64,000 bases of DNA from assembly GCA_044356225.1 (NCBI GenBank), contig JBIKWR010000001.1, forward strand, positions 17,244 through 81,243, read 5' to 3'. The notes under the pieces are model-generated. The model saw only the letters and a program-made list of their open reading frames with translations, searched no databases and was not told where the DNA came from. The stretch comes from Bacteriovoracaceae bacterium. Its GTDB lineage: Bacteria > Bdellovibrionota > Bacteriovoracia > Bacteriovoracales > Bacteriovoracaceae. Below, piece after piece: positions 1,585 to 26,146 of the stretch (position 1 is the stretch's first letter; each line of letters starts with the position of its first letter). The position numbers were made by a program, and so were the translations under genes.

Positions 1585-3330
1585 TTAAGGGAGTGGTAGT
1601 CTAGTCGTTGGATCTCCGAAAAGATGATACCAGCGAAAATTATCAATAACATCTGGTCGATGGTGATGCAGCCGTAAAAGTTCCAGCTGTCCCATCCATA
1701 GGGCATCGCCCAGTCTGGTTACTTGGTTTTTTACCATTTGATCGGTCATTTGCGCCGCCATAATGGCAGGAGGATCCCAGGATATATTGACCGAGCCTCC
1801 ATAGAAAGCAACAGCACCACTTGGAACACCATTGACCTCGGCGTTGATAAACATTTTTCCCAAACTCTCTTGACCATCAAATCGGCCGTTTTGGCAGGCG
1901 ACATCGATAATGATGGGTTTGATTTTGGATGGTTGGTAATCTTGAATATCGTCTCCATGATACTCTTCATATTCATAAAGACTAGGCCAGCTAAGGCCGC
2001 TACCATGACCGATGTAGTTCATCCAGATCGCTCCTTGAGATAAGGCGCGATTGATTTCTAGCACATTGGCATTCGGATTTTTCTGCAAAAAATTGTTGGT
2101 GGTGATTGAAAAATTTTGCAACAGAGGCTTTTGAGCTTGCGCCAGATACTCTTCATCAGAGGGAGCAAATCCTTCATCAGAAGCGATGCCGATTAGATGG
2201 TGAGAAATGCTTGGGTCTAATTGTTCATACTCGATTATTTTTTTGGTTTGAATCAAGAGGTCATGCGCTTGATCGATCACAAAACGAGCATAAAACACTT
2301 CTGGCAAAAAATCATTTTCCCCATCCATGGTAAAATAATTTAAATCAGAAGGGGTCTGGACGCTCATCGATGTTGCAACAAATTCGGTGGGCATTTCATT
2401 TAAGTTACCGATTAAAATCGTATAACTCATTTCTAATTCTTGGTATTTTTGATGCAGAAAATTTTTGACTTTGAAACTGTCATTTAAGCTTTCATCCACA
2501 ACATAGGTGACATCAAAACCTAAGGATTTTTTCCAGGTCATATAATCGCTTAATTCCCATTCATAATTTTTAGTGGAGAGAATCAACATTTTATTATTAT
2601 GGCGAATCAGCGACCATAAATCTTTTGGCGAATGGATGATTGTCGCATGCTCATGATGAATTTGAATTTTTAACTCGGGGTAGAGTTTGGTCGATCTAGT
2701 TTTTAGATCAACTTGCAATGGATAGATGAGTAATCGCGATAACTGAACACCTCGAAATTTCCCCAGGGCCTCAATTTTAAAAAATGGCGAAGGGTCTTGA
2801 TTTTTATTTTTTTGCCAAAGATCATAAGCTTTTAATTCTAAAAATTTTATGGTCTGAGAGTCTTTGTCTATCAGTTGACTCTCTTTTTCACAACGACAAG
2901 GCTTTTGGATGCCAGCACTGGGTAAGCTGTCAGCATAAAAAATATTTTTTTCTAAAGAACTCTGAATCACGTCGATATCGTTTTCATGAATTTCGCCGGC
3001 CAAAATCAAGGAATAAAAGGGGATGTTGGGACTTTTCACTTCATTGGTTTGAGCAAGTCCAGGAACTTGGTAATCTAAAATGGTTAATTCATGGGCGAGG
3101 TTAACCTCTGACGGTGAGGAAGGTGAAATGGTGGTTTCCCAATTTTTTTTGGCATGGAAATCAGCAAGCGTGAACTCCAAAACGGTTTGATGTGATGTGG
3201 TCCGTATTTTAACGGGAGCTTCGGTATTTATTTTCTGAGCGAGCACCAGTTGGTTGTTTGCGCTGACCTGGTAAAAAATTGTAAATAAAATGAGGATGTG
3301 AATTAAAAAACTTCGAATCATTGTTTTCAT
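1585..3330 (-). CDS. secreted cysteine peptidase, C25 (gingipain)-like
   Basis: 581-aa ORF with N-terminal signal peptide. The C-terminal half carries a NYIGHGSGLSW (His-Gly) motif and an IIIDVACQNGRFDG (Ala-Cys) motif, in the order and spacing typical of the clan CD/C25 catalytic dyad. GAGG lies 7 nt upstream of the ATG. Confidence 0.55.
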   Translation of the reverse strand: MKTMIRSFLIHILILFTIFYQVSANNQLVLAQKINTEAPVKIRTTSHQTVLEFTLADFHAKKNWETTISPSSPSEVNLAHELTILDYQVPGLAQTNEVKSPNIPFYSLILAGEIHENDIDVIQSSLEKNIFYADSLPSAGIQKPCRCEKESQLIDKDSQTIKFLELKAYDLWQKNKNQDPSPFFKIEALGKFRGVQLSRLLIYPLQVDLKTRSTKLYPELKIQIHHEHATIIHSPKDLWSLIRHNNKMLILSTKNYEWELSDYMTWKKSLGFDVTYVVDESLNDSFKVKNFLHQKYQELEMSYTILIGNLNEMPTEFVATSMSVQTPSDLNYFTMDGENDFLPEVFYARFVIDQAHDLLIQTKKIIEYEQLDPSISHHLIGIASDEGFAPSDEEYLAQAQKPLLQNFSITTNNFLQKNPNANVLEINRALSQGAIWMNYIGHGSGLSWPSLYEYEEYHGDDIQDYQPSKIKPIIIDVACQNGRFDGQESLGKMFINAEVNGVPSGAVAFYGGSVNISWDPPAIMAAQMTDQMVKNQVTRLGDALWMGQLELLRLHHHRPDVIDNFRWYHLFGDPTTRLPLP

Positions 3331-3499
3331 TTTTTTACCTCAGTCATTCCCTTACTTTTATTTCCCTGTATGAAGAGCTAATAGGCTAAGGACATCGGAA
3401 AAATGTTCCCTTTCCTTGAGGATGCTAAACTAAAAATGTCGGGGATAGTGCAAGCCGAATGTTCTAATCTTTAAGATTGATCAATTAAACAGATGAGGT

Positions 3500-5936: not shown

Positions 5937-5945
5937 AAATATAAA

Positions 5946-7010
5946 TTAATGATCGATCGTCTCGAGAATTGATTTTTGAGGAATCATCATTTTAATAAAC
6001 TTTTTTAAGAGGTCTTGATCAAATCGACCAATATCTTCTTTCATTATTCTAAGTGCATCGGCGGGAGAAAATTTTTCTTGGCGATGAGGTCCGGTGGTAA
6101 TCAGTGAAGTAAAGACATCGGCAATGCCGACTATTTTTGCAAGGTAATAAATTTCTTTTTCATTCAAGTGATTTGGATAGCCCATACCGTTGGGCTGTTC
6201 ATGATGCTGTAATATGATCATCCTTACTTCTGGTCCCACGCCACGAATGTCAGTGATCATTTTGGCGCCTAAGGAAGGATGCTCTTTGATTTCTTTCCAC
6301 TCTCTGGGAGTTAAATCTTTTTTATCTATCAATTCGGGATCGATCCGCGACATTCCAATATCATGAAGTAATCCACCGATACCTACACGATGAATAGATC
6401 GTTCACTTTCAAGTCCTGCTGCCTTGGCCAATAAGATAGAAAAAATACTGACCATAAAACTATGTTTCATTTGATATGGTCTGGCCCCTAAGTTTTTGAT
6501 AATGCGACAAAGGCCTTCAAAATCTGATTCCAAAATACGATGACAACCTTTCAGTGAGGACTCCGCCCACTTTAATGTATTGGGACCTAAGTCCACATTT
6601 AAATGAATTTCATGAAGTGCAATATTAATCATTTCGTCAGTAATTGTTCTGACGGTGTTAAGTGAAAAATGAGTCATGGAAGTTAAAGTTCTCTCCATTA
6701 ATTTTTCCACATAAAACTGAAATGATTTTTTTTGTTTGTTGTGAACATAAAAACATTTAATTTCTTTATCGAGATACTTATTCAAAATTACTTTATCGAT
6801 GGGATTTCCCTGATGAAAAATTTTAGTATAAGAATTTTCACCTCGTTTTAAAAAAATATCAAAAGGAAGATCACCATAAAAAGCTTCAATCAAACGAGCT
6901 CTTAAACGGATATAGTTTTGTAATATACTTGGATCAAGAGCACTTTCGGGAGAATCTGATCTTTCATTCTCTTTGACTGTGATGAATTTCTTTTTTAATG
7001 CTTGGCCCAT
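5946..7010 (-). CDS. HD-GYP domain protein (probable c-di-GMP phosphodiesterase)
   Basis: The C-terminal domain carries LLHDIGM (HD) and HHEQPNGMGYPN (GYP) motifs. I do not recognise the N-terminal ~150 aa. Confidence 0.8.
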   Translation of the reverse strand: MGQALKKKFITVKENERSDSPESALDPSILQNYIRLRARLIEAFYGDLPFDIFLKRGENSYTKIFHQGNPIDKVILNKYLDKEIKCFYVHNKQKKSFQFYVEKLMERTLTSMTHFSLNTVRTITDEMINIALHEIHLNVDLGPNTLKWAESSLKGCHRILESDFEGLCRIIKNLGARPYQMKHSFMVSIFSILLAKAAGLESERSIHRVGIGGLLHDIGMSRIDPELIDKKDLTPREWKEIKEHPSLGAKMITDIRGVGPEVRMIILQHHEQPNGMGYPNHLNEKEIYYLAKIVGIADVFTSLITTGPHRQEKFSPADALRIMKEDIGRFDQDLLKKFIKMMIPQKSILETIDH

Positions 7011-7264
7011 AAAACACCTTGGTTGGATCTATTTTATCAAGTAAATAAACTTTCCTGTAAATGGTCGATATTTAAGAAGCAAAATGTCTCATTTAATGAG
7101 GATAAAAATTAAAAGGGTAAATATCCGTGGCAGATAAATAATCTAGCTATATTTAGCGATATAAAGGAGGAAAATAACTGAAAAAAAATGGGGAAGTAGC
7201 CGAAAAGAGATCGACCATAAAAAAATTAAAAAACATAAATGTTGAGAAATACTCCAGCTTATTT

Positions 7265-10200
7265 ATGAATATTATTTTAAAAATATTTATCATTAACACC
7301 TTTCTGTATGTCGCATCGAGTGTTGCGGCTCAATCAACTTCTCATTTAGTGGGATTGGAAAATTTAACTAATGATCAATCGTTAAACGATTGTCAGGCAA
7401 CAGAAGAAATTTTAGAAAACAGTACCATCAGTGAAGAAAATCAAAATATGTTTTCAAGTCTTTTGGATGTTCTGCCTCAACTTTCTGGGAATGGTCATCA
7501 GTTAAGTTCTCTAGTCCCTCCTGGTCCATCAATGACTTTAACCCTGGAGCATTTAGATTGTTTTCCAACTCCCAAAAAAGACAATCAAGAATTCTGTTTA
7601 AAATCAGATTTAGCTAGGTTTTATTTAACATTTTACAGTCTAAAACTGGAGCATCACCAAGACCAGATTCTTCAAGTCATTCGGAAACAGATCAACGATG
7701 ATATGAAAAGTCTAATAATCCTGGCGCAGGATTCCTACAAAAATAAAAAAGAAAAAATTCCTTTATCCGATTTTAAAAAATTGGCATGGTATTTTTCACA
7801 AGCCAGACACCCAAAAAATAATATTTTAATATTTGATGAGTCAAACTGGTTAAATTTTATTCAAACCTCCTTAGAAATACGTCGTCTGGATAATAGTGCA
7901 GAAAATGATGAGGATCTAGCAGCGATTATTGCGATTGCGCTCCAATCTCCGGCCATCACTGCGTTAGGTATCAAAAAAATTGTCGAGATCATTCAAAATG
8001 AAACAGTAAAAATTAATAAAGACGAAATGATTCTCCAGGCCTTGGCATCACGGATTCAAAATTTTCCAACGCCGGAATTAGAGCAAGATCGAGCTTATCT
8101 TTTAGGGGGACTTTTTCAATTAATTACTCAATCAAAGATGAATCAATTGGCCAAAAATTTAGCGTTAGATCAAGTCAGACAAGTGGCGATCAATTGGAAA
8201 TTAGATCCTCAAATCTTGGTGACGGTTAAAGTCCTGACTGAAGATAAACCAGCACCAGACTTAGATCCACTCTTAGGTGGGAGTTATCCTCAGACTCCTT
8301 TTCGCATGCAGTTAGACGAAAATGACTCTACTCCAAGCAAAGGAGAGGGAAGTGGAAGAGTCGAAGATTTTTTTACCAATCTTTTGGGTGGATTAGTTGT
8401 GCCTTTTGGATCAAAAAAAGATGATTTTAAAAAGGCCGATGACTTTTTAAGAAAAGAAATTCGAGAAGTATTAAAAACGACCAAAGAACTCCAAGATTAT
8501 CTTTTTACCCCAATAACAGATGACATGAGCGATAGGGGAAAATTAGTCACGAGAATGGAAAACGAAGATCTCGAAGACCAAATCATTGAAAGAATTATTG
8601 ATCTTAAAAAAAATAAACACAAATTTTTAGGTTTTAAAGAAGGAATTGTTAAAACGAAAGATCGAGTCATCGGTTTATCTAATTTTGTCATCTTGCAAGA
8701 AATTGTTCTCAAACAATTACAAAAAGCACTCAATCTCCCAAGGCTTTCAACCTCAGCTGAACTTGACGAATTACTTTTAAAACAAGTAGCAGAAGTGACA
8801 AAGGTTTTTGGCGACTGTATCGAAGCCGCCAAGCATGATGATCAAAAAGTTGATGGATGTGCAAAAAAAATTCAATCATCACTCCCTTATCGTATTGGAC
8901 ACCAATTGATTCCCATTTTGTTAAGGGAAAATATGGCATCCCAATTTCAAGATCAAGACGGTAAACTAAATAGTGAAGGTTTAGATCGACTGATTGTAGG
9001 GGCCTTGAATGACTATGATCAATGTTCTGAAAACCATCTTTTTTTAACTGCAAAACAAGAAGAAATTTATCGTCAAAAATATAAAAATGATTTTAATGAT
9101 TTACAAAAGCTGCTAGGCAAAAAGAATCAATCGGCGATAGGCACAACGACCAATGGCATTTCACAAGAGGATCGCCAAAATGTATTAGAAGTTCCCGTGA
9201 TGAATCCCTTGTCAATGGTTCAAGGTTGCGTCTTTTTTGCTTTTCTTAATTCAACGGTTAATGGGGGCGTTATCGACCAAGCGCTGAGCAGTTCTTTAGG
9301 TCCTATTTTTACTGGCCAAACACCTGAGGAAAAAAAACAGTTAATTAGTAAAGTAACGGCAAGAGTCTACAGTTGTTTAGAAAATAAAGGCTTGCTAAAA
9401 AATGGCCAACCAGTTTATGTGAACCCAGAAAAAATAAAAAATCTTTATCAGCAGCGGTTTGAAATTTTAAAAGAGTATCATCAATTTGCCGAGTCGTTAC
9501 AAAACATTTACAAAAAAGATCCGAAAAAAAGAACTGAAAAAGAAAGAACCAATCTGATGGTTTGGCAATTGAGGGAAAAAGATATTTTTGCCTCTATAAA
9601 AAAGATCGATGAAGACTTGGTCAATATTAATCCTCTAACCTCAATGGACCAAAATGAGTTTGTAGATAGTCTCAAAGAAGAATGCACCGTTAAAATTGCC
9701 CTCGATGAAGTGATTCGGTTTTTTGTCAACGATAATGAATTGGCGAAAAATTACTATCGGGAGTTTCCCGCCAAGTTGGATCAAGTGATCAATCAAGTCA
9801 TGGCCCTTGGTTTAGAACAATGTTTGGCCACCCAACAGCAAGTGATTGACCAACAAATGGAGAAAGTGAGTACGGATTTCCATCGCGGCCGCTTTATCGA
9901 GGGCGAAAAATACAATGGTTCAAAAGAAAGGAAAATTATTCGTGAGATAAAGAGTAAACAAAATATGGGCCATTGTATCGACTTAATCAAAAGCACAGCG
10001 CTTGGATTAATTTTTAGTGATATAATTAATGGTCAGTCGATCGAAATGTTTAATGCTACTTTACAAGATGTCGGATTGACTTGGGAGGAATTTTATAATG
10101 ATCCTCGCTTAAGTAAATTGGGAAATGAATTTTCCTTAGCAACTAGTCAAGGACTAGCAGAAACTGAAAAGTGCTTTGAGAATTTACGAGTTTCAGCTTT

Positions 10201-13200
10201 AAAATATATTCAAGATCATTTAGTTTTAGGTAAAATTACTGAAGCCGAGCAAATTCATTGTTTAAAGCTTGGAATCGAGAAATTGGCCAGTGGACTTGTG
10301 CGCTTAACTATCGAGCTTAAAGTAGCGAAGGATCAGGCCTTACAAGATTTTGCTGCTCTGATCACTCCACAAATTAAAAACGAAGCGATTTTAACAGTCC
10401 AAAACTGTTTTGGATCATATCTTAAAAAAGCTGAAAACTTTGACCAGTTAACTTTAGCGCTGGATAATGCTAAAAGAGTTTGTGCCATTGATGCATTTTC
10501 TTCGATTTTGGGAAATCTATTACCAATAGTTATAGAGAAAGAATTAAAAGATAAACTAAAACCTGAAGGTAATGAAACACCTGAAGAGTTAAGTGATCTG
10601 TTGACTTTACAGAAATCCCTTAAAGATACATTTGTTGATCAATATTTAAATCAAAATCTTCCCCGAAAAATTAAAGAAATAAAAGAAAAGATTACAGATG
10701 ATAACATGGAATTGTTAACCGGTGAATTAACCCAAGATCTTAAAGCGGAAGCGATTTGGTTTTTTGCCAACCAATTGATCGGTGATAAATTAGTCGATAT
10801 GTTGGGAGAGGTAAAAAATGCTAATAGCACTGATAGCAACAATGGCGAAAAGATTTTAAACCTAGAACAACTCAACCCCTACCTGCAATTGGCCCTAACC
10901 AAATCCGAACAAGAAGCTTTCAAAAGTAAACTTGGCAATAAAAATTATGCAGAATTATCCATCAATGAACGTCCCTTAGGCTTAATTAGTGATCAATTAA
11001 GTAAACGACTGATGGAGGCCAAAACCGAATCAGAAATGCAGCTAGTATTGGATGATATAATTTTCACGACCACCGCCTCGTTAGCAGAAGTTATTCTTAA
11101 CAAAGAAATAGGTCAGTTGATTATTGGCAATCCCAATAATCAAAAGTCAGTAGCAGATCGCGATAAATTAGTAGGAGATCTAGTTACCGATTTAAAAACT
11201 TGTTTAGCAGCGGCTTCGAATGTATCTGGTATGGCCAAGTCCAATGAATGTTTAAGCAATTTATTAAAACAAGCAGTCTCAAAAATTACCGACTATATCC
11301 TTTATGATTCTATTTTTTCAATGGTCGATAGTTCCATCAATGATGAATTGAAAAGAAACAATATTAAAGCCGAGATGGAGACTAGTTTTAAGGCGGTGGT
11401 TGAAAATTGTATGGCAACGATCCCCGAAAAAGTTAAAAGTAGATTAAAGCTTGAGATTTACATGCCTGGTGAGAGGTTGAGTGAAGAACTCGCAGAGTTA
11501 AATGTTTGTGCTGATAAAATCAAGCGATATGCGATTGAATATTTTGGTGGCGCTGTAGTGCAAATGATTTATGAAGAAATGTTTCCCTATTTAAGTTCAG
11601 AGCAAGTGGAAATTGTCGTCGAACGCGTGAGAGAAGATGTCGCCTTTATTTATCAAATTGATGATAATGTAGGGCACATTAAAAACTTTGTTAAGTATCT
11701 GACCGCAAATGATATTGTGAATAGGAAATTATCAGAAGTTGTTGAACCGGTTTTTAATTACGATCAAAAGAAACTCAAGGAAAATCTTGTCAAGTATCAA
11801 AACATGTTTGATCAATGTCTTGATGTTTATGTGAATTCTGCGGGCGAAGAGTTTAGCTACTTAGCAGTCAAAGATAAATTAACGTCAGGTCAAAAAGCTG
11901 GGCTTGATCAGTTGTCAATTGATTATGATTTTGGAAAAAAGTTTTTCCAAGCGGATTATTTAAAACAAATTGGTTATGAAAGTTTACTCTTTGATAAGGA
12001 TTGGAAGTTTGATGCTCGGTTTAACAGTTGTTTAGTGAATTTTTTGGGCACCTTGCTCAAAGATTTAATCAAAGATACCGCTCTAGATTACGGAATTATG
12101 TTCGATCAAGCATTCCAAGATAAGATAAATCATATAATGAATGCTTGCATTGAAGAGAAAAACCTCAAGCTTTTTTCGTCAAAAACAATCGGTGCTGATT
12201 TTTTTATCATGAATCCCACATTTTCTTTAAATGATGTCACGAAGGCCTATCTTGGCAATGAGAATTCCTGTAAAGAGTTAGCGATTCAAGAAATTTCAGT
12301 CTATATCGAAAACTTTTTTATTGAAAAAGCCTCTGCTCATATGACGGCAGTCAGTAAACTTAACAATGAATTGATGGATGCTAACTCAATTCAAACAAAA
12401 CAAGAATTACTCAAAAGCTTTATCGATTTAGGGATGCTCTACGGGCGGAATTTAGAACGCGGCCAAGATGCAGGTATGAAAAATGGATTAGGCCCACCCC
12501 AGCTTTTAGAATACTTTGATCGAGTGGCGGCTTTTATGGCCAATGGAGTGATTAAAGAAACAGAATTATTAACAAATGATATTCGCTCTTTAGAACAATC
12601 GGTCAAGGAAGCAGTAGCGCAAGGAAAATCTTTTTCTATCGATGAGGTGGTTAAATCATTAATAAAAAGTAAAAAAGAAAAAGACGATGTTAAAGCCTCG
12701 GGAGTGATCCTTAATTTGTTAAAGGCGAATTTTATTGCCGAGGGTAAAACAAAACACTCCGCTAGGACAGAGTTATTTTTAGATGAACTCTTTTTAGGCC
12801 TTTCTAAGCCAAGTTTATTTGATCGACTGTCGCTGAAGGTTTTGTTAGCTGGTAATCAAGAGTCCTCAGAAACGAGTACCTTAAAACTTGAAATGGGGGA
12901 AATCGAATCCTTAGCAAAAACCGTTCTTACCACCTTAGAAGCGATTGCTGATTATCAATCAGAATCTGACCTACAACCGATCAGTTCACAGGCAATTGTG
13001 TATTTAAATGAATTTTTCGCTCAGTTAGAAAAAGTTGCAGGAGAGCTAACTTATCCTGTTATCGTTAACGAGTTACAAAAAAGTAATCTTTTTAATCACG
13101 CCAAAGAGGCGATCATCGCCGATAGTGTTAAAAAAGGATTAACGTCATCTTTTACCAATTTATTTTATTCTCAATTAGACAGTGTTTTGGCCGATCATCA

Positions 13201-14458
13201 ATTCTATCGTCCTACTTACGAAGGTATCTTTATTGAAGAAATTCTCAATGAAAAAGGCGAAAGAATCACCAAAGAATACAATGTGGATGAAGTCCTTAAA
13301 CGGCTAGATCAAAAGTATCGTGATCAATTTTATGACTATTTGTCCGATCCCCTTTATAGTGCCAGTAAGGCGTATCAGTATTTAGCTTCGGTGAGCGGAT
13401 TAAAAAGAAAACCTGATGATGATCAATATTATCCATTAAAGTCTAGGAACATAAATATTGATATTTATTTTATCAATAGATTAGAAATGAATAAAAAAGA
13501 TGGCCAATTCACTCATCCATTTTTTCGAGGCTTAATGGATTTAAAAAAAGATCAAACATTTTTTGATCTCTTACCCACTAAAGAGATGAAACATCTTTTT
13601 AACCGGTTTCCCAATGATGAATTAGCAACAAAACTCTTAACTAGAAGGCTCATGACGGAGTTTCAAAAACCCAATAGTTGGCTTCTTAAACTAAATGACA
13701 ATTCGGATGTGATTTATTATCTCAGACAAGCTGGTGGATTATCTATGCTTGATCTTAGTAAACCAAAAACCATCGCTCAAATGCGAGCAGATAAAAAACT
13801 TCATGAAAAAATTGATGAAAAGAACCATCAACAATTTTTACAATTTTGGTCAGTGGTGGGTGATGATAAAAACGTGAAGATGGTGGGAAGTCTTGCTCGC
13901 ATAAAGTCCATCGTGGATCAGGCCACTTCACAAACGGTGATGGGTCCGTTGATTAATTCCGAGTTAGGAAAAAGGTTTTTTGCAGAGCAGATGAATCCAA
14001 AAATCGAAAAACTTTTATTGGATCCTGACTACGACTTTAATGACTTATCCCATGATCTAAACTCACCTGAGATGATGAATCCGTTAACCAACCTTTTAAT
14101 ATCTAATCGAAAAGGTGGAAGTTTAGTTGATTCTATTGCCCATTTATCGATGCAAGATACGATTTATGCTTTTGTCTATGATCATGCCCCTAGTGCAATG
14201 ATATTTAATGGAAATTTTGAACTTAAGAGTATGTTTACTGAAGAGAACTGGGCCCAGATTAGTAAAAATGATAAAGAGAATTTTATCACTAACTATTTTG
14301 CGGATTATATTTTAAAACCTTCGATCAATAGTGAGGTTTTTGATGCTAAATCCAATATCAAAACATTGGGTAAGATTGTAGAAATTATTGTTGCCCAAGA
14401 TGATGATTGGGATGATATTCAGTCTGAATATAAAGAATTAATGGATAAGAAAAACTAA
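7265..14458 (+). CDS. giant secreted protein, unknown function (2397 aa)
   Basis: Uninterrupted 7.2-kb ORF with signal peptide MNIILKIFIINTFLYVASSVAAQ. Composition is K/E/L/D/Q/N-rich and looks helical. It contains recurring paired-Cys modules and no catalytic motif I recognise. Confidence 0.8.
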   Translation: MNIILKIFIINTFLYVASSVAAQSTSHLVGLENLTNDQSLNDCQATEEILENSTISEENQNMFSSLLDVLPQLSGNGHQLSSLVPPGPSMTLTLEHLDCFPTPKKDNQEFCLKSDLARFYLTFYSLKLEHHQDQILQVIRKQINDDMKSLIILAQDSYKNKKEKIPLSDFKKLAWYFSQARHPKNNILIFDESNWLNFIQTSLEIRRLDNSAENDEDLAAIIAIALQSPAITALGIKKIVEIIQNETVKINKDEMILQALASRIQNFPTPELEQDRAYLLGGLFQLITQSKMNQLAKNLALDQVRQVAINWKLDPQILVTVKVLTEDKPAPDLDPLLGGSYPQTPFRMQLDENDSTPSKGEGSGRVEDFFTNLLGGLVVPFGSKKDDFKKADDFLRKEIREVLKTTKELQDYLFTPITDDMSDRGKLVTRMENEDLEDQIIERIIDLKKNKHKFLGFKEGIVKTKDRVIGLSNFVILQEIVLKQLQKALNLPRLSTSAELDELLLKQVAEVTKVFGDCIEAAKHDDQKVDGCAKKIQSSLPYRIGHQLIPILLRENMASQFQDQDGKLNSEGLDRLIVGALNDYDQCSENHLFLTAKQEEIYRQKYKNDFNDLQKLLGKKNQSAIGTTTNGISQEDRQNVLEVPVMNPLSMVQGCVFFAFLNSTVNGGVIDQALSSSLGPIFTGQTPEEKKQLISKVTARVYSCLENKGLLKNGQPVYVNPEKIKNLYQQRFEILKEYHQFAESLQNIYKKDPKKRTEKERTNLMVWQLREKDIFASIKKIDEDLVNINPLTSMDQNEFVDSLKEECTVKIALDEVIRFFVNDNELAKNYYREFPAKLDQVINQVMALGLEQCLATQQQVIDQQMEKVSTDFHRGRFIEGEKYNGSKERKIIREIKSKQNMGHCIDLIKSTALGLIFSDIINGQSIEMFNATLQDVGLTWEEFYNDPRLSKLGNEFSLATSQGLAETEKCFENLRVSALKYIQDHLVLGKITEAEQIHCLKLGIEKLASGLVRLTIELKVAKDQALQDFAALITPQIKNEAILTVQNCFGSYLKKAENFDQLTLALDNAKRVCAIDAFSSILGNLLPIVIEKELKDKLKPEGNETPEELSDLLTLQKSLKDTFVDQYLNQNLPRKIKEIKEKITDDNMELLTGELTQDLKAEAIWFFANQLIGDKLVDMLGEVKNANSTDSNNGEKILNLEQLNPYLQLALTKSEQEAFKSKLGNKNYAELSINERPLGLISDQLSKRLMEAKTESEMQLVLDDIIFTTTASLAEVILNKEIGQLIIGNPNNQKSVADRDKLVGDLVTDLKTCLAAASNVSGMAKSNECLSNLLKQAVSKITDYILYDSIFSMVDSSINDELKRNNIKAEMETSFKAVVENCMATIPEKVKSRLKLEIYMPGERLSEELAELNVCADKIKRYAIEYFGGAVVQMIYEEMFPYLSSEQVEIVVERVREDVAFIYQIDDNVGHIKNFVKYLTANDIVNRKLSEVVEPVFNYDQKKLKENLVKYQNMFDQCLDVYVNSAGEEFSYLAVKDKLTSGQKAGLDQLSIDYDFGKKFFQADYLKQIGYESLLFDKDWKFDARFNSCLVNFLGTLLKDLIKDTALDYGIMFDQAFQDKINHIMNACIEEKNLKLFSSKTIGADFFIMNPTFSLNDVTKAYLGNENSCKELAIQEISVYIENFFIEKASAHMTAVSKLNNELMDANSIQTKQELLKSFIDLGMLYGRNLERGQDAGMKNGLGPPQLLEYFDRVAAFMANGVIKETELLTNDIRSLEQSVKEAVAQGKSFSIDEVVKSLIKSKKEKDDVKASGVILNLLKANFIAEGKTKHSARTELFLDELFLGLSKPSLFDRLSLKVLLAGNQESSETSTLKLEMGEIESLAKTVLTTLEAIADYQSESDLQPISSQAIVYLNEFFAQLEKVAGELTYPVIVNELQKSNLFNHAKEAIIADSVKKGLTSSFTNLFYSQLDSVLADHQFYRPTYEGIFIEEILNEKGERITKEYNVDEVLKRLDQKYRDQFYDYLSDPLYSASKAYQYLASVSGLKRKPDDDQYYPLKSRNINIDIYFINRLEMNKKDGQFTHPFFRGLMDLKKDQTFFDLLPTKEMKHLFNRFPNDELATKLLTRRLMTEFQKPNSWLLKLNDNSDVIYYLRQAGGLSMLDLSKPKTIAQMRADKKLHEKIDEKNHQQFLQFWSVVGDDKNVKMVGSLARIKSIVDQATSQTVMGPLINSELGKRFFAEQMNPKIEKLLLDPDYDFNDLSHDLNSPEMMNPLTNLLISNRKGGSLVDSIAHLSMQDTIYAFVYDHAPSAMIFNGNFELKSMFTEENWAQISKNDKENFITNYFADYILKPSINSEVFDAKSNIKTLGKIVEIIVAQDDDWDDIQSEYKELMDKKN

Positions 14459-14478
14459 CTAGTCCTTAGTTCAATGGA

Positions 14479-15084
14479 CTAAAACTCTGGTGCCGTATAA
14501 ACATCAATCTCAGGATCAAATTGCTCTTTTAAAATCGATTTAATCGCTTGCAGTGTTCCAGCACTAGAGCTTGGACAAGTCCCACAAGCTCCCTGATATT
14601 TTATAATCAGAATATGATCTTCATAAGACAAACAAACGAGATCTCCGCCATCACCTTGCAATCCTGGACGAATGGTATGATCGAGAATTTCTTCAATTTG
14701 TTTTAACTCGGGACTTAACTTATTTCGTCTCTCGGCTTCCGGGTTAGGGTCATGATAATCGGGATTATGTTGGGGTAAATTGATCTGCAAAGAATTGATC
14801 GCTTGAGATTCAATTTCATCCCAGTCCGCATAACTAAACTTTGATAGTGTGATGACATTTTGAAAAAGATGAACTTGGTCCACTCCACGAATTTTAAATA
14901 ATTCTAAAACTAATGGAACATGCTGACATTCATCAGGGCCACGATAACTGGATCTTCCTTCGGCCTTAACATCTTTTTCTAAGATAATTTTATAAGCGTT
15001 GGGATTAGGGGTAGGTTGAATAGACATTTGTAGGTCGTTAACCTGTTCCATATTCTGTATCTCCATAGTATTCATTGTTATCAT
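14479..15084 (-). CDS. Nfu/NifU-type Fe-S cluster carrier (Nfu_N plus NifU C-terminal domain)
   Basis: N-terminal TPNPNAYKI motif and C-terminal DGGDL...QGACGTCPSS CxxC motif. The start overlaps the sufU stop (TAATG). Confidence 0.8.
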   Translation of the reverse strand: MITMNTMEIQNMEQVNDLQMSIQPTPNPNAYKIILEKDVKAEGRSSYRGPDECQHVPLVLELFKIRGVDQVHLFQNVITLSKFSYADWDEIESQAINSLQINLPQHNPDYHDPNPEAERRNKLSPELKQIEEILDHTIRPGLQGDGGDLVCLSYEDHILIIKYQGACGTCPSSSAGTLQAIKSILKEQFDPEIDVYTAPEF

Positions 15085-15548
15085 TACTCCGTTTTAACGA
15101 TTTCTTTTTTTCCATCCAGCATATTTTTTAATGTATGCCAAGCGAGCGAGGCGCATTTTACGCGGGCCGGGTATTTCCAGATGCCACTAAAAATCTGTAA
15201 TTTCCCTAGAGCATGAGGCCCGCTAGAGGGATCGAGCTTACCGGTTAACAATTGATGAAATTGTTCAAAAATCAAAAGCGCCTCAGATTTATTTTTGCCC
15301 TTTAAAAAACTGGTCATCATAGAAGTTGAGGCCTTGGAAATGGCACAGCCTTGGCCCTCAAAACTTAAGGCGTCTATTTGATGGTCTTTATTCATTTTTA
15401 AATACAAATGGTAATGGTCACCACAAAGAGGATTATAACCTTCCAGGTGATGAGTGGGATTTTCCATAGTATGAAAATTTCGAGGATTGCGGTTATGATC
15501 CAGAATTACTTCTTGATAAAGTTGCATCATTTCAGCATTTAAACTCAT
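15084..15548 (-). CDS. sufU: SufU sulfur-transfer/zinc-dependent scaffold-like protein
   Basis: YQEVILDHNRNPRNF, NPLCGD, GQGCAISKASTSMM and KYPARVKCASLAW are collinear with the SufU/IscU-like fold as I recall it from Bacillus SufU. Confidence 0.9.
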   Translation of the reverse strand: MSLNAEMMQLYQEVILDHNRNPRNFHTMENPTHHLEGYNPLCGDHYHLYLKMNKDHQIDALSFEGQGCAISKASTSMMTSFLKGKNKSEALLIFEQFHQLLTGKLDPSSGPHALGKLQIFSGIWKYPARVKCASLAWHTLKNMLDGKKEIVKTE

Positions 15549-20562: not shown

Positions 20563-23500
20563 CTACTGAACCTTAAATTGGCGAGAAAATTCCTCTAAAA
20601 AGAGGGCATCATTTTCTAGATTTGAAAGTCGATAATAAGCCGCCAGATCTAAGATTCTGGTACTCTCAGTGGCAGTTAACTCAGAAAGTTGATTAATCAT
20701 GGATTGTGATTCAACTAAGCGATTCATCTTTAACTGGGCGATGGTTGAAAGTCTTAAGGCCTCAGCTAACAGGTAACTCGATTGAAAATTTTGGGCCAAT
20801 GAATTTATCGCCTTTTCATATTCACCCAACTCCAAGTAGTACTGACCTAACAATAGATCAAAATAAGGTCCACAATCATTTTTTAGTTTGGCAGCACGAG
20901 AGAGAAGATCATTTTCATTAATTTTATCGGCCGATTTGGGATCAATATTGAGATTAATCAGGGTTTCATAACAAAAAGTGGTGTCATCTTTTAACGAAGC
21001 AGTCGTTTCCGCCAAAAGTTTTTGCGCCTCGATCCAATTTTTACTAATTAAATGTATTTGCAACATCGAATTGAGCGAGTAGGTGTCTGGATTTTTCTTC
21101 ATCGCCAGATTGAAGTAATAAAGTGCGCTGTGGTAGCGCTCTAGATTTTTAGTGGTTTCACCTAAATACTGGTAATCTTCTTCCGCTTGTTTTTGACGTT
21201 CAAAGTGGGCAAATTTTTGATAAAGCTTTTCGGTTTTTTGATAACTCAAATAGTGATTGATAATATTTTTATTAAAAGAATCTAAGGCCACCTTGTCTTC
21301 TTTTAAAGGACCTAGCAGAGTGCCAAAATTTCCTTTAAAACTTACATGAAAAAAGTTATCGACCCCTTGTTGAGCTTCATTATTATAATAAAGTTTTGAT
21401 TGCCTTACTTCAGCGTAGGCATTGTCGTCAGTGTTGATCACCGCGGATTCAATCAATGGCCAAACGTCTTCTCTGGTGAAGGCAAAATTTGAAAAAAAAC
21501 CTTCTTTCGATTCAATCGGTACCATTTGTAAAACATTTTTCCAGCGCTGGCCGCGTTTGAGTTTTTCAAACTGCTCATGGTTAAATTGCAGAGGTGAAGA
21601 TGACCCAAGCATGATCAGTTCGTCGTCGACGGAATCGGTGAAAACTGCACCATGAGGAAAGACTTCATAAAAAGATTTTAAAATACTTTTTAAGACAGTT
21701 TCATCCATATTGTAGAGATTGAGCCATTGAGCAAAAATTCCCTTTTGGTTAAGATTATTTTTAACAATTTTAAAAAAATCGATGGTAAAAAGATTCGCGA
21801 CCCCAGTCAGCCAACTATGACTTGGTTGAGAGACGACAAAATCATACTGTTGATCTTGCATAGAGTTTAATGAATAACGAGCATCTTCAATTTCAAGCTT
21901 GAGATTTTTACGTCTTAAAACGGGATTGGCCCCTTGATAGACATAATCAGCTGCTTCTAAAATTCCTTTTTCAAGTTCAACCACATGAACCATGGGAATT
22001 TGTAGATTAGTTAAAAGATCGACGGTGTAGCCTCCTCCATATCCTACGATATAGGCCTTTTGCGGTCGATCGCTAAAAAGATAAGGTAGTAAACCTAACA
22101 ACGCTTCATATTTGGGTAACACTTCCAGGGCATTTTGAAAGTAAACAGATTCATTGAGCCCATTGGTTTTAAGTCTTAAAATTTCTTGATAATTTTGCCC
22201 GTCATTTTTGTCATTACTCAAACTGATAATCGCCGTTTCACCCTCGCGGATCATTTTAAAATCTTCGTTTTCTTTTGAGAGCGCTTTTTTAACATCGGCA
22301 AAACTAGCAAAACTGTGACGGTAATTAAAATAAGCTGCTTTAATCACTTGATGAAAACGCACACTAGGGGCAAAGAGCATAATCAAAACTAAAACGACGG
22401 TCACTGCCGAATAATTTTTATTTAACTTGAGAGATTGCCAAAATGAGCTGGGCCCATCTTCTCTTAATCCCCAAACAATCATGACCACTAAACTAACTAT
22501 CAAAAAAAGCACCGCCATTAATATGGCGGCGGCAGAACCCCAAAGCGGTAGAATGATAATGCCCGTGATATAGGAGCCTAAAATTGACCCACAAGTATTA
22601 ATCGAATACGCTAGACCGACTTGCCACGAGGCCTTTTTTCCATCGACAGTTAAGGTGCTAATTGCCAGCGGAAGCAAGGATCCAAAAATGATGGTTGGCA
22701 ATGTTAATATCATGGTTGCCGCAATCGCCTTAACTGTTAATTGTCCAAGCTCGAAATTAAACATTTTAGAAACAAAAAAGGCGATGTAGGCCAGTTCATC
22801 TAACAAATAACTAGTCGCCATGACACTTAAAACATTTACCACTATTAACTGGGTCAAAAAGCGATACTTATTTTTCAAGCGATCAATAAAGACAGCAAGT
22901 ATAAAAGAACCAATCGCCATTCCAAAAAGATAAATCGCCAAAATTAATCCTAAACCATAAATATTAGTGCCAAAAAAGACTCCCAAATATTTATTCCACA
23001 CCACTTGGGCGGTGAGAGAGGCCATCCCACTGGCACCACAGGCGATTAAAATCGCTTTTGACTGGGTTGGCATTTTAACTTTGATAGAAATCGTTTTTTC
23101 TTCTGGGGATAAGGTCTTTTGAAGATCTTCATTCTCATTTTCATTCTCAGTGGTTTCTTTCGCTAAAATTAACTGGTGAATAATAACTGCCGCCACCATG
23201 ATGGCAAAATTAACTATCGCCATGGCAGTGTTGGCCTTAGAAATCCCCCATAAAGGAATAAGATGAAATCCCGATATAAATGCACCAATCGCCGCACCAA
23301 AAGTGTTGATCCCATAAAGAAGTGAAATAATTTTTCCGGTATTTTTTTTGTTACTTTGTAACTCTCGTCGAGAAAACAACTGAACGAGAATCGGAAGTGA
23401 TGCTCCCATACCCAAGGTAGGAGGTAACAAAAATAAAAAGACTAATCCAAACTTGATCATCAAGAAAAATGCTGAATCAGGAGTTACACTTAATAAATCG

Positions 23501-23808
23501 CAAACAGTTGAAAGAATCGTTTGAAAATTCAATAGTCCTTTGATCAGAAAAAAACTATACAGGCCAATCAGACCTTCTATCACCCCATAAAAAACTAAAG
23601 GTCTGTTAATCTTCTCAATATATTTACCGGCAAAAAAGCTACCTAAACTAAGCCCAAAAAAGAAAATAGAGAGAACCAAACTCATCGATGCAGAGGTGGA
23701 TCCAACTCCCAAGGCAATGACTCGAATCCAAAGAACTTCATAAACTAGACTGGTCAGTCCAGATAAAATAAAGAGCAAAGCAATCGGCAAAAGTTTAGAT
23801 ATTTTCAT
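20563..23808 (-). CDS. fused polytopic membrane domain / spermidine-synthase-like domain / TPR protein
   Basis: The first ~480 aa are many hydrophobic helices (MFS-like). The middle has a Rossmann-type GYGGGYTVDLL...VELEKGI...DFVVSQPSHSW segment resembling spermidine synthase-like proteins. The C-terminal ~250 aa are TPR-like helical repeats. Confidence 0.65.
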   Translation of the reverse strand: MKISKLLPIALLFILSGLTSLVYEVLWIRVIALGVGSTSASMSLVLSIFFFGLSLGSFFAGKYIEKINRPLVFYGVIEGLIGLYSFFLIKGLLNFQTILSTVCDLLSVTPDSAFFLMIKFGLVFLFLLPPTLGMGASLPILVQLFSRRELQSNKKNTGKIISLLYGINTFGAAIGAFISGFHLIPLWGISKANTAMAIVNFAIMVAAVIIHQLILAKETTENENENEDLQKTLSPEEKTISIKVKMPTQSKAILIACGASGMASLTAQVVWNKYLGVFFGTNIYGLGLILAIYLFGMAIGSFILAVFIDRLKNKYRFLTQLIVVNVLSVMATSYLLDELAYIAFFVSKMFNFELGQLTVKAIAATMILTLPTIIFGSLLPLAISTLTVDGKKASWQVGLAYSINTCGSILGSYITGIIILPLWGSAAAILMAVLFLIVSLVVMIVWGLREDGPSSFWQSLKLNKNYSAVTVVLVLIMLFAPSVRFHQVIKAAYFNYRHSFASFADVKKALSKENEDFKMIREGETAIISLSNDKNDGQNYQEILRLKTNGLNESVYFQNALEVLPKYEALLGLLPYLFSDRPQKAYIVGYGGGYTVDLLTNLQIPMVHVVELEKGILEAADYVYQGANPVLRRKNLKLEIEDARYSLNSMQDQQYDFVVSQPSHSWLTGVANLFTIDFFKIVKNNLNQKGIFAQWLNLYNMDETVLKSILKSFYEVFPHGAVFTDSVDDELIMLGSSSPLQFNHEQFEKLKRGQRWKNVLQMVPIESKEGFFSNFAFTREDVWPLIESAVINTDDNAYAEVRQSKLYYNNEAQQGVDNFFHVSFKGNFGTLLGPLKEDKVALDSFNKNIINHYLSYQKTEKLYQKFAHFERQKQAEEDYQYLGETTKNLERYHSALYYFNLAMKKNPDTYSLNSMLQIHLISKNWIEAQKLLAETTASLKDDTTFCYETLINLNIDPKSADKINENDLLSRAAKLKNDCGPYFDLLLGQYYLELGEYEKAINSLAQNFQSSYLLAEALRLSTIAQLKMNRLVESQSMINQLSELTATESTRILDLAAYYRLSNLENDALFLEEFSRQFKVQ

Positions 23809-23965: not shown

Positions 23966-26146
23966 TTACAATTGTGCAGGATTATCAAAGGCCATTCCCA
24001 TAGGCATAGGAACCGGTCTTGGAGGCATTGGTCCCGGACCCGGTGCTGGAGCTGGCATTGGTCTTGGCGGCAACGGCATTGGTGCTGGGGCCGGAGCTGG
24101 ATCTGGCATCGGTCTTGGTGGCAACGGCATTGGTGCTGGAGCTGGACCCGGTGCTGGTGATGGCATCGGTCTTGGCGGCAACGGCATTGGTGCTGGAGCT
24201 GGACCAGGTGCTGGTGCTGGATCTGGCATCGGTCTTGGCGGCAACGGCATTGGTGCTGGAGCTGGACCAGGTGCTGGTGCTGGATCTGGCATCGGTCTTG
24301 GTGGCAACGGCATTGGTGCTGGAGCTGGACCAGGTGCTGGTGCTGGATCTGGCATCGGTCTTGGTGGCAACGGCATTGGCCCTGGTCCTGGCATCGGCCC
24401 TGGTCCTGGCATCGGCCCTGGTCCTGGTATCGGCCCTGGTCCTGGCATCGGCCCTGGTCCTGGCATCGGCCCTGGTCCTGGCATCGGCCCTGGTCCTGGC
24501 ATTGGCCCTGGTCCTGGCATCGGCCCTGGTCCTGGCATCGGTCCTGGTCCTGGCATCGGTCCTGGTCCTGGCATCGGTCCGGGTCCTGGCATCGGTCCGG
24601 GAAATGGCATCGGCATTGGAGCTGGCCCTGGTCCTGGATTTGGCAATGGCATTGGAGTTGGTCTCATCGGCATAGGAAACGGCATTGGATATGTAGGCGG
24701 CACCGGAATTGGGCGCATTGGCCATGGCATCGGCTTCCAAGGAACTGGAACTGGTTTGTAGTGAGGAACACAACCGCCATAGTTAGGAGAGTAGTGTGAT
24801 CCAGGTCCGCATAATTTATTTTTATGATATTGGCCATGGTACCAGTTATTGTTGTTCCAAACACACTGGCCTAAAACCCAAGACCAACTTTGGCCAACTC
24901 CACAATAACCATTTTGATGATTGGCAATACATCCACCATGGTAAGCACTGTAATGAGTGCCTGGCGAACAGTAATTATACCATTGAGTGGGCCGACAAGT
25001 GAGATCTAAACCACCCCACCAACTCCAACCAACTTTACAACCAGAGTAGCTTGGTAAACAGCTTCCAGAATAATGATCATAGTATGTACCTGAGTAACAT
25101 TTTTTAGCACCCCACCATACACATTTGTCTATGACCCATGAATACTTCGTTCCCACCGGGCAAAAATTGGCATTTGGTCGGCAACGGTTACTCCAAGGAT
25201 CAAAGGTCCAGTTAAAAGGACATCGCTGATAAGTGTTTTTAATACATTCATAAGTGAAATGATCGTAACTATATCCAACTGGACAATAATTATAAGGATG
25301 AGATGGATAATTAACACAGCGATTTAACTGGTTATCGTAAAACTGACCAGCAGGACAAAATTTTCCTGAGTTTGGTTTACAAAATCCATGGAGATCATCG
25401 TAATAATATCCAGGAGCACAAGCATAGTCGTTATTGTTTTCTTCTAATACAGTAACTTCAAATTGTTTAAAAGTTTGATTTCCCCATTCATCTGTCGCAC
25501 TCACGACAAACTGATTTGAACCAGTTTCGATAGGGTAACCAGAAATAGAGAATGAATTTTCATAAACATCAGTGCGAACTTCAAGCCCTAAGGGAGCATT
25601 TCCCGAAACTAACTCACCATTAAAAAAAGTGCTATTAGACGGTAATCCTACCTCGATGGTTTCATCATAATACTGTTGTAATCTTGCTACTTTTAACTCG
25701 CGAAAATCGTTGAATTGATAATGATCTATTTGCTCGCTATTTTCAGAATATAAACAGAATCGTTCGGCGGTTGATCGCTCGCCACTATTATCATAAACAG
25801 TTGCTCTTAAAACAAAACACCAAGAACCAACAAAGGCCGGAGTTCCAAACAAAGTCGCATAAGCGCTTGAACCGTTTGCTAGATCGAGACCCGCTGGTAG
25901 ATCATCTTGATGAATATCCCAATCCACTCTTGCCGAAGAAAGAGCTCCTCGAAGTGAAAATTCCAATTCAGAATATTCACCATACTTAACAACTAGGTCA
26001 TCTGCTTGACTAACAATTTGCAGTTGACGGTCTAAAGTGTCGTTGTCGTAATCTGAATCTCCCCATTGGGCGAAGGCCGGAGCAATAATCAGACTACAAC
26101 ACAGAAATGTTAGCATCCACCAGTAATTCCAAATGCGTTTTTTCAT
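23966..26146 (-). CDS. secreted modular protein: two Ig-like (He_PIG-type) domains, Cys-hairpin repeats, proline-rich repeat tail
   Basis: Signal peptide, then LPAGLDL..GTPAFVGSW and APLGLEV..ISGYPIETGSNQF segments. About ten C-P-x-G-x-x-Y-x(5-7)-C units follow, then (MPGPGP)n and (PAPAPMPLPPRPMPDPAPAPG)n. GAGG lies 4 nt upstream of the ATG. Confidence 0.8.
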   Translation of the reverse strand: MKKRIWNYWWMLTFLCCSLIIAPAFAQWGDSDYDNDTLDRQLQIVSQADDLVVKYGEYSELEFSLRGALSSARVDWDIHQDDLPAGLDLANGSSAYATLFGTPAFVGSWCFVLRATVYDNSGERSTAERFCLYSENSEQIDHYQFNDFRELKVARLQQYYDETIEVGLPSNSTFFNGELVSGNAPLGLEVRTDVYENSFSISGYPIETGSNQFVVSATDEWGNQTFKQFEVTVLEENNNDYACAPGYYYDDLHGFCKPNSGKFCPAGQFYDNQLNRCVNYPSHPYNYCPVGYSYDHFTYECIKNTYQRCPFNWTFDPWSNRCRPNANFCPVGTKYSWVIDKCVWWGAKKCYSGTYYDHYSGSCLPSYSGCKVGWSWWGGLDLTCRPTQWYNYCSPGTHYSAYHGGCIANHQNGYCGVGQSWSWVLGQCVWNNNNWYHGQYHKNKLCGPGSHYSPNYGGCVPHYKPVPVPWKPMPWPMRPIPVPPTYPMPFPMPMRPTPMPLPNPGPGPAPMPMPFPGPMPGPGPMPGPGPMPGPGPMPGPGPMPGPGPMPGPGPMPGPGPMPGPGPMPGPGPIPGPGPMPGPGPMPGPGPMPLPPRPMPDPAPAPGPAPAPMPLPPRPMPDPAPAPGPAPAPMPLPPRPMPDPAPAPGPAPAPMPLPPRPMPSPAPGPAPAPMPLPPRPMPDPAPAPAPMPLPPRPMPAPAPGPGPMPPRPVPMPMGMAFDNPAQL
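24040..24377 (-). repeat. imperfect tandem repeat, 51-63 bp unit, about 6 copies (coding)
   Basis: The GGCAACGGCATTGG anchor recurs at 24069, 24120, 24177, 24240, 24303 and 24366. It encodes the 17-21-aa PAPAPMPLPPRPMPDPAPAPG unit. Confidence 0.9.
24378..24611 (-). repeat. 18-bp tandem repeat GGCCCTGGTCCTGGCATC, about 12-13 copies (coding)
   Basis: Head-to-tail units start at 24378 with only synonymous-type variation (GGTCCT/GGCCCT, ATC/ATT). They encode (MPGPGP)n. Confidence 0.9.

Follow-up and report, generated by a model that had tools for sequence, protein, structure and literature searches.

The window analysed here is a stretch of 64,000 nucleotides from a Bacteriovoracaceae bacterium (assembly GCA_044356225.1, contig JBIKWR010000001.1), and at 7265..14458 of its forward strand it carries a gene for a very large protein. 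The open reading frame (ORF) is unbroken, begins with ATG and encodes 2397 amino acids followed by a stop, as observed in the ORF listing and the translation; the mature product would be an acidic protein of ~270 kDa and pI 5.2, in which L, K, E, I, D and N are abundant. A first-pass annotation, made from the sequence alone, had described a single 7.2-kb ORF for a secreted protein built of paired-cysteine helical modules; the ORF was borne out and all five peptides quoted there are present in the translation. Because ~7% of random codons are stops at the G+C content of the window (~35%; by arithmetic ~0.07 stops per codon), an ORF of 2397 codons cannot be due to chance. The identical 2397-aa product is called in three public assemblies, from NCBI, JGI 3300059473 and Logan, on contigs of up to 94.7 kb, and its synonymous codon usage lies at a distance of 0.079 from the housekeeping genes of the window, as near to them as they are to one another. 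The ORF is a real, native gene. Its 90%-identity cluster holds only identical fragments (P0002 and P0003 among them) and hence gives no information on polymorphism. Upstream, a divergent intergenic region of 254 bp (7011..7264) is common to the large ORF and a gene of the HD-GYP (cyclic di-GMP phosphodiesterase) type at 5946..7010 on the minus strand, which carries an HD_5 domain with the motifs LLHDIG and GMGYPN, an arrangement that the first-pass annotation had given correctly. We noticed no Shine-Dalgarno motif before the ATG of the large ORF, though most window genes have one, and no sigma-70-like match in the spacer. Downstream, 20 bp separate the end of the large ORF from that of the convergent nfu gene (14479..15084, minus strand), the last gene of a suf cluster, which served as the anchor for synteny.

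The protein begins with MNIILKIFIINTFLYVASSVAA followed by QS, which on inspection is laid out as a Sec signal peptide (n/h/c): it has a positive n-region (MNIILK), a hydrophobic h-region (IFIINTFLYVASSV) and an AxA-type cleavage site between AA and QS. The predicted signal peptide thus covers residues 1-23 (7265..7333, plus strand), with cleavage before QS. Hydropathy peaks at residues 1-22, and strongly hydrophobic 19-mers occur only there, besides a few weaker internal ones; the signal peptide contains no lipobox cysteine, and no hydrophobic segment fit for a membrane span was found in the large protein outside it. Export of the protein, as proposed earlier, is supported by this predicted layout. 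Behind the signal peptide, four regions can be told apart on the plus strand: an N-terminal region (aa 24-517, 7334..8815) with ~52% helix and cysteines at 43, 99 and 111; a cysteine-bearing helical core (aa 518-1669, 8816..12271) with 20 cysteines and a predicted helix content of 71-74%; a cysteine-free helical region (aa 1670-2075, 12272..13489), delimited from the cysteine positions and the secondary structure assigned by DSSP in an AlphaFold2 model; and a conserved C-terminal domain (aa 2076-2362, 13490..14350), also free of cysteine and the only part with a known homologue. A multi-region helical protein, rather than a tandem-repeat protein, best explains this organization.

The 23 cysteines make up 0.96% of the residues and are unevenly placed, as 20 of them fall within aa 518-1669 and the last 728 residues contain none, which has a probability of about 2e-4 under uniform placement of 23 cysteines. 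Those of the core are over-dispersed, and because the minimum gap in aa 500-1700 is 14 residues (P about 0.009) they avoid each other and are not paired. Consecutive cysteines 12-45 residues apart occur ~8 times, about as many as under random placement, and the 'paired' cysteines of the first-pass annotation were not recovered, close pairs being no commoner than chance. What the cysteines do share is a local context, approximately [VLF]-[NED]-x-C-[LFIA]-x-x-[AI]-x-x-x-[ALI]-x-x-x-[IFL], in which positions -2 and -1 are polar (hydrophobic in only 13-17%), +1 is hydrophobic in 83%, and -7, -3, +4, +8 and +12 are hydrophobic in about 65%, giving an amphipathic periodicity. The same hydrophobic pattern was not seen when segments were anchored on M, F, V, I, L, A or Y. 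By mean pairwise score the cysteine-anchored segments surpassed all 2000 random sets (z = 4.6) and all sets built on other hydrophobic residues, and a leave-one-out position-specific scoring matrix separated them from 189 cysteine segments of other proteins encoded in the window (P = 8e-6). Judged from the sequence, cysteine marks a recurring structural position on predicted amphipathic helices, and no repeated domain.

We also compared the large protein with itself by several methods. Self-BLASTP at E <= 10 returned the identity match only, and Smith-Waterman scores of 150-aa segments were only slightly above those of shuffles, an excess which is expected because the segments share an amphipathic periodicity. 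With hhalign, overlapping 150-aa tiles reached a top probability of 8.7%, against 9.6% for reversed-sequence controls. Tandem Repeats Finder (TRF) reported no tandem array in 7265-14458, and a DNA repeat search within the gene gave only short two-copy matches of a type that is often due to chance. The cysteine positions showed no significant Rayleigh periodicity over the core (P = 0.82); a period of 24.5/49 residues was found in aa 640-1100 (R = 0.84, P = 0.028), a sub-region that was picked after seeing the data, and segments aligned on this 24.5/49 lattice bore no mutual resemblance. The recurring module which the first-pass annotation saw at least seven times, and which it had itself proposed to judge by such a self-comparison, therefore did not appear with BLASTP, Smith-Waterman, hhalign or TRF; what remains of it is a weak form, the shared cysteine and helix context of ~20 residues. 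It may be noted that aa 1552-1583 (IDYDFGKKFFQADYLKQIGYESLLFDKDWKFD; nt 11918-12013) and aa 2230-2260 (INSELGKRFFAEQMNPKIEKLLLDPDYDFN; nt 13952-14044) resemble each other weakly, with a BLAST E of 0.09 and an hhalign probability of 8.7%; the similarity is not significant, yet it was the top self-match in two methods.

Searches for a known family were likewise empty. Scans of Pfam, NCBIfam, PHROGs, PADLOC and PDB sequences with the whole protein, its C-terminal 397 residues and the two-sequence alignment A1 described below gave nothing above noise, the best score, 19 bits for DUF1413, lying below the cut-off of 25. Nothing was found at E <= 1 when all PDB chain sequences were searched by phmmer. 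A word-indexed search of 5.8 billion proteins came back empty with the full length and, even at E <= 1, with aa 1-1200, an exhaustive phmmer search of 1.84 billion representatives with aa 1198-2397 returned only the protein's own fragment, and pattern scans of genome, metagenome and viral contigs revealed no relatives. The catalytic or anchoring motifs HExxH, GxSxG, P-loop, CxxC, GGxGxD and LPxTG are all absent from the large protein. A phage or defence-system origin was rejected, as the PHROGs, PADLOC and viral-contig scans were empty. The earlier statement that the protein has no recognisable domain thus held, and the profile searches against Pfam and PDB recommended at that time matched no characterised family.

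The sole relative came from synteny and not from sequence search. A 3.7-kb contig of the metagenome JGI 3300041081 (L012) comes from the nearest relative that we found (SufS 72%, SufU 67% and Nfu 69% identical), and in it the order sufS-sufU-nfu is followed by a convergent ORF (2769-3746 of that contig, minus strand) which runs off the contig end. The 325 C-terminal residues available for this ORF align with aa 2076-2362 of the large protein at 28% identity over 297 residues (E 4e-26; E 1e-20 by tblastn). The resulting alignment A1 has 86 invariant positions, many of them hydrophobic, Gly or Pro, and the L012 fragment is without cysteine, like the matching part of the window protein. Because this syntenic ORF aligns to its C-terminus, the large protein is not a singleton; from sequence and position, namely a homologous C-terminal domain at the same place convergent on nfu, the two make up a new sequence family. 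A metagenome scan with A1 found no further member, and the exact sequence of the L012 fragment is missing from a 15-billion-protein collection, which is probably why the sequence searches found nothing. By these comparisons the family diverges far faster than its neighbour genes and is present in only part of the Bacteriovoracia clade. A protein of 2400 residues seems an absolute orphan here, as it evolves near the limits of search (28% identity, versus ~70% for the housekeeping neighbours) in a clade that is barely sampled. The best explanation is that the family is small and restricted to one sub-lineage of the predatory, Bdellovibrio-like Bacteriovoracia.

The surroundings of the gene agree with a chromosomal locus of this clade. 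The closest homologues of Nfu (59-69% identity) carry the source names Halobacteriovoraceae and Bacteriovorax, and therefore the host is a Bdellovibrio-like predator of Bacteriovoracia without a close sequenced relative. The window is chromosomal, with the suf cluster, hemF, pckA, argS, parE/parC-like genes, era, der, bamB and a class II ribonucleotide reductase gene; no tRNA or Rfam match was found in it. We compared the nfu neighbourhoods of the window and of seven contigs (L006, L007, L009, L010, L011, L012 and L015). A flanking block, Rrf2-sufBCDS-(sufU)-nfu ... hemF-DUF3943-~236-aa protein-FecR-TPR, is conserved across the Bacteriovoracia contigs, and the nfu-hemF interval (5937..14478 of the window) is a variable slot between the conserved suf and hemF-DUF3943 blocks. 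It contains the large ORF and the HD-GYP gene in the window, an EamA gene with small ORFs in L006, L007, L009, L010 and L011, and a single 201-aa ORF in L015, which has sufU like the window. Thus neither a large gene nor an HD-GYP gene is found between nfu and hemF in these six contigs, and none of the loci fetched, other than L012, retains relic similarity to the large protein. There were no flanking repeats, tRNA or adjacent integrase at the slot to explain its variation. A recent horizontal transfer or mobile element was rejected on the native codon usage and on this lack of flanking repeats, tRNA or integrase beside the gene, and a Bacteroidota origin, to which the neighbouring C25 and DUF3943 genes and the lack of a Shine-Dalgarno motif seemed to point, was rejected since most window genes have such a motif and the nearest relatives are Bacteriovoracia. 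A scan of genome contigs with SufS gave only matches of <= 51% identity in unrelated taxa, which were of no use for synteny. As the HD-GYP gene shares the variable slot and the divergent control region with the large gene and is absent from the slot where the large gene is absent, a control of the large gene linked to cyclic di-GMP is conceivable, though speculative.

For the fold we used AlphaFold2 without an alignment, in two pieces (aa 24-1223 and aa 1198-2397), which gave a mean predicted local distance difference test (pLDDT) score of 40.3 and 35.7, respectively. DSSP assigned 63% helix and 9 strand residues in about 2370, with 37% helix in the last 370 residues (all at low confidence), which together with the amphipathic hydrophobic periodicity supports the helical nature claimed for the protein earlier. 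Foldseek on these models, a search that had been suggested at the outset, found no match against the PDB at E <= 0.001; all that came back were alpha-solenoids of a generic kind and designed helical repeats (best E 0.008, full-length template-modelling (TM) score < 0.12), among them the non-significant local matches 5cwj (TM 0.67, target-normalised, E 0.77) and 6xh5 (E 0.07). We infer that these two would be placed at roughly aa 143-313, the only stretch with a pLDDT of 50-70, which is modelled as stacked helices. Sixteen of the 20 core cysteines lie in predicted helices (pLDDT ~40), and several are 5-6 residues away from where such a helix ends. Only three consecutive pairs, 518/532, 1313/1329 and 999/1048, are roughly symmetric across a predicted helix-turn-helix in the low-confidence model, and this geometry, suggestive at most, is the one expected of a disulfide stapling a hairpin.

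Combined together, these observations lead us to propose, tentatively, that the large protein is helical, exported by Sec and fast-evolving, that it belongs to the envelope or cell surface of one lineage, and that its core would probably contain some intramolecular disulfides. According to this proposal each of the 20 core cysteines would sit where, after two polar residues, the hydrophobic positions begin, on the side of an amphipathic helix that is buried and often ~1.5 turns from the predicted helix end. After export to an oxidising periplasm some of them may form intramolecular disulfides that lock neighbouring helices, 518-532, 1313-1329 and 999-1048 being the best candidates in the low-confidence model, and the protein so locked could serve in the envelope or at the cell surface, as a structural element or in making contacts. 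That the periplasm of this host is oxidising is plausible because two other exported proteins of the window, described below, are rich in cysteine and have even counts (56 and 22) once the cysteines of the signal peptide or lipobox are left out. Proteins that face prey, phage or the environment typically diverge fast and are patchily distributed, and the rapid divergence of the large protein fits an exposure to prey or environment. Several points weigh against the proposal. A cysteine content of 0.96% is ordinary, the count in the mature protein (23) is odd, and close pairs are not enriched, gaps of <= 35 residues in aa 500-1700 numbering 5 against 8.5 expected. The only homologue, L012, covers just the cysteine-free C-terminus and so allows no reading of cysteine conservation; both AlphaFold2 models are unreliable, which makes the helix boundaries, and hence the hairpin geometry, weak evidence; and the link to HD-GYP is drawn from a single genome in which the two genes are neighbours, the L012 contig ending before the position of the HD-GYP gene in the slot.

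The average cysteine frequency, the odd count and the unenriched close pairs are also what one would expect if the protein were an exported helical orphan in which the cysteines are buried core residues, free thiols or incidental, and staple no module at all; their shared context would then reflect merely where a small hydrophobic residue fits in the helices of this protein. The lack of any internal repeat and the leave-one-out motif scores, which are negative on average and indicate a weak motif, agree with such an explanation. It does not account for the failure of segments on other hydrophobic residues to show the pattern, nor for the confinement of the cysteines to one region with none in the last 728 residues, and unpaired thiols are generally disfavoured in exported proteins of an oxidising periplasm. 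We therefore regard incidental cysteines, and an incidental context with them, as rather unlikely, yet as a serious competitor to the locking disulfides. On the other side of our proposal stands a bolder version of it, that the protein founds a new structural class of giant helical proteins exported by Sec, long rods or scaffolds locked by disulfides in which each helix is stapled to the next through lone cysteines at one fixed helix position, the class being confined to one predatory Bacteriovoracia clade, placed at the predator-prey interface and possibly switched by the HD-GYP phosphodiesterase; we hold both the architecture and this setting of it to be distinctly unlikely.

An intermediate case is a true alpha-solenoid of the HEAT, ARM, TPR or Sel1-like kind, with repeats diverged past detection and cysteine kept at an equivalent position of the repeat. 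The recurring cysteine and helix context would follow from it, six cysteine gaps fall at 46-55 residues, in line with the post hoc period in aa 640-1100, and Foldseek returned only alpha-solenoid or designed helical-repeat structures. However, the periodicity vanishes over the whole core, the lattice-aligned segments are unlike each other, all self-comparisons by hhalign, BLAST and Smith-Waterman were negative, no Pfam repeat family was found at E <= 1, and the Foldseek matches are non-significant and come from a low-confidence model, which leaves a solenoid unlikely. The C-terminal domain draws attention to a different possibility, a secreted effector akin to polymorphic toxins, in which these ~290 residues are the active part and the long helical part serves for delivery or presentation. 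The domain is the only part known to be conserved and is compositionally distinct (37% helix versus 71-75% in aa 501-2030, and no cysteine), and the size, rapid divergence and patchy distribution of the protein would suit an effector; against it, neither aa 2001-2397 nor alignment A1 matched a toxin, enzyme or immunity family in Pfam, PADLOC or the PDB, the catalytic motifs HExxH, GxSxG and P-loop are absent, there is no candidate immunity gene, since nfu begins on the other strand 20 bp past the stop, and the L012 homologue is truncated, so that conservation can be read for the C-terminus only. An effector is accordingly improbable. That the ORF is spurious or decaying and no functional protein is made could be argued from the missing Shine-Dalgarno motif and promoter-like match and from the lack of close homologues, but a 7.2-kb open frame at 35% G+C can neither arise nor persist by chance, and the native codon usage, the clean signal peptide and a syntenic orthologue that is open at 28% identity with its hydrophobic, Gly and Pro positions conserved make this extremely improbable. 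We thus retain the exported helical envelope or surface protein as our tentative reading. The earlier observation was, overall, largely correct as a description while it overstated the repeats, and its interpretation is plausible rather than proven. As it stands, the case is one of an uncharacterised fast-evolving protein with a modest sequence curiosity and no demonstrated new mechanism; exported orphans that are large and evolve fast are frequent wherever a lineage has been poorly sampled.

Other features of the window were also noted. In the window (15084..15548, minus strand), as in L012 and L015, the suf cluster encodes, after sufS, a scaffold of the SufU type (NifU_N) as well as a carrier of the Nfu type; sufU is missing in the five more distant Bacteriovoracia contigs and may serve as a clade marker. 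Beside the cluster, at 20563..23808 on the minus strand, lies a gene for a 1081-aa fusion of a major facilitator superfamily transporter and a spermidine-synthase-like part, which is kept in this position in L015. On the hemF side, a C25 (gingipain-type) cysteine peptidase gene (1585..3330, minus strand) stands between the DUF3943/237-aa pair and FecR; its place is taken by an ArsC-family gene in L009-L011 and by nothing in L015, which makes it a second lineage-specific insertion in this neighbourhood. Two further regions encode exported proteins. At 56629..61707 on the minus strand is a gene for a 1692-aa predicted lipoprotein with the lipobox LTSC (Cys32), 57 cysteines (3.4%; 56 without that of the lipobox), several CC doublets and no Pfam family. 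It lies directly downstream, on the same strand, of an orphan of 726+ aa that starts beyond the window end, and the two possibly form a two-gene unit of exported orphans. This latter orphan (61789 to the window end, minus strand), the N-terminus of which falls outside the window, contains ten cysteines, most of them closely paired, and was taken in the first-pass annotation for a second protein of the same style as the large one; we found no similarity and only a trend in cysteine context (P = 0.087), and kinship of the large protein with either this or the 1692-aa orphan was rejected for lack of similarity. A genuine paired-cysteine tandem repeat, unlike the large protein, is present at 23966..26146 (minus strand), where a 726-aa exported protein (22 cysteines after removal of those of the signal peptide) has ten tandem C-x12/13-C modules (aa 243-459) and, behind them, a long tail rich in proline, made of (PGPGPM)n and (APAPMPLPPRPMPDP)n that derives from DNA tandem repeats at 24024-24614; the gene has a G+C of 0.48 against about 0.38 around it, and only weak CBM_14 and He_PIG matches. 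Within era (39823..40971) a perfect in-frame repeat of 15 bp x 6 at 40549..40640 encodes (SHNHL)6, which explains in part the unusual length of the Era GTPase (382 aa); its 100% repeat identity suggests a recent expansion.

Among known systems, the Hcp/Sel1-like proteins and the CagY repeat region of the Helicobacter pylori cag type IV secretion system come nearest to what we propose, as both are exported and helical with regularly placed cysteines and a documented or proposed disulfide bridging, the CagY region being rich in Lys and Glu with an extensive disulfide linkage proposed (PMC2581425). Like HcpB and HcpC of Helicobacter, which are Sel1-like, the large protein appears to be an exported alpha/alpha protein, and the bridging of cysteines on neighbouring helices is a feature of the Hcp proteins that it could share. 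However, the Hcp proteins are small and have clear 36-aa tandem repeats that are seen by Pfam Sel1, whereas the large protein is ~10 times larger and without repeat, and the Pfam scan of the whole protein found neither Sel1 (PF08238) nor TPR at E <= 1. Moreover, Sel1/Hcp proteins have a regular close cysteine pair and a disulfide in each repeat, in contrast to one cysteine per helix at irregular gaps of 12-407 residues here. CagY, like the large protein by its predicted location, is a very large envelope or surface protein with a helical region, but it consists of near-identical tandem DNA and protein motifs (the A motif of 38-39 aa) flanked by transmembrane segments. In CagY the repeats are followed by a VirB10 domain. 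The large protein, unlike CagY, has no DNA or protein tandem repeats, no transmembrane segment and no VirB10 match, and no secretion-system genes were seen near it among the annotated genes of the window. Membership in the Sel1/Hcp or CagY type is excluded by the absence of a Sel1/TPR profile and of tandem repeats and by the irregular cysteine spacing. Similarly, the large protein is no RTX or type I giant adhesin, having a Sec signal instead and neither GGxGxD, Pfam repeats nor strands; no autotransporter or two-partner secretion adhesin, with no Pfam match and 9 strand residues in about 2370; and no polymorphic toxin, with no toxin domain in aa 2001-2397 or A1 and the convergent nfu as next gene. 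Alpha-solenoids (HEAT/ARM/TPR, and designed repeats such as 5cwj) are all-helical and elongated, as the large protein would be, the matches to them being non-significant at a pLDDT of 36-40. An ecological parallel is offered by the large secreted proteins of Bdellovibrio-like predators, which are exported, large, poorly conserved and set among housekeeping genes, as the large protein is; we found no homology to a characterised predator protein. Many genes without homologues are reported in Bacteriovorax and Halobacteriovorax genomes, and characterised predator proteins such as the fibre adhesins and PopA are beta-rich or trimeric fibres, unlike a helical monomer of 2400 residues. If the proposed locking of helices is true, the large protein would represent an envelope component peculiar to one lineage of predatory bacteria, a group in which little is known of the machinery for prey contact, and a third independent disulfide-locked helical architecture in bacterial exported proteins, after Hcp/Sel1 and CagY.

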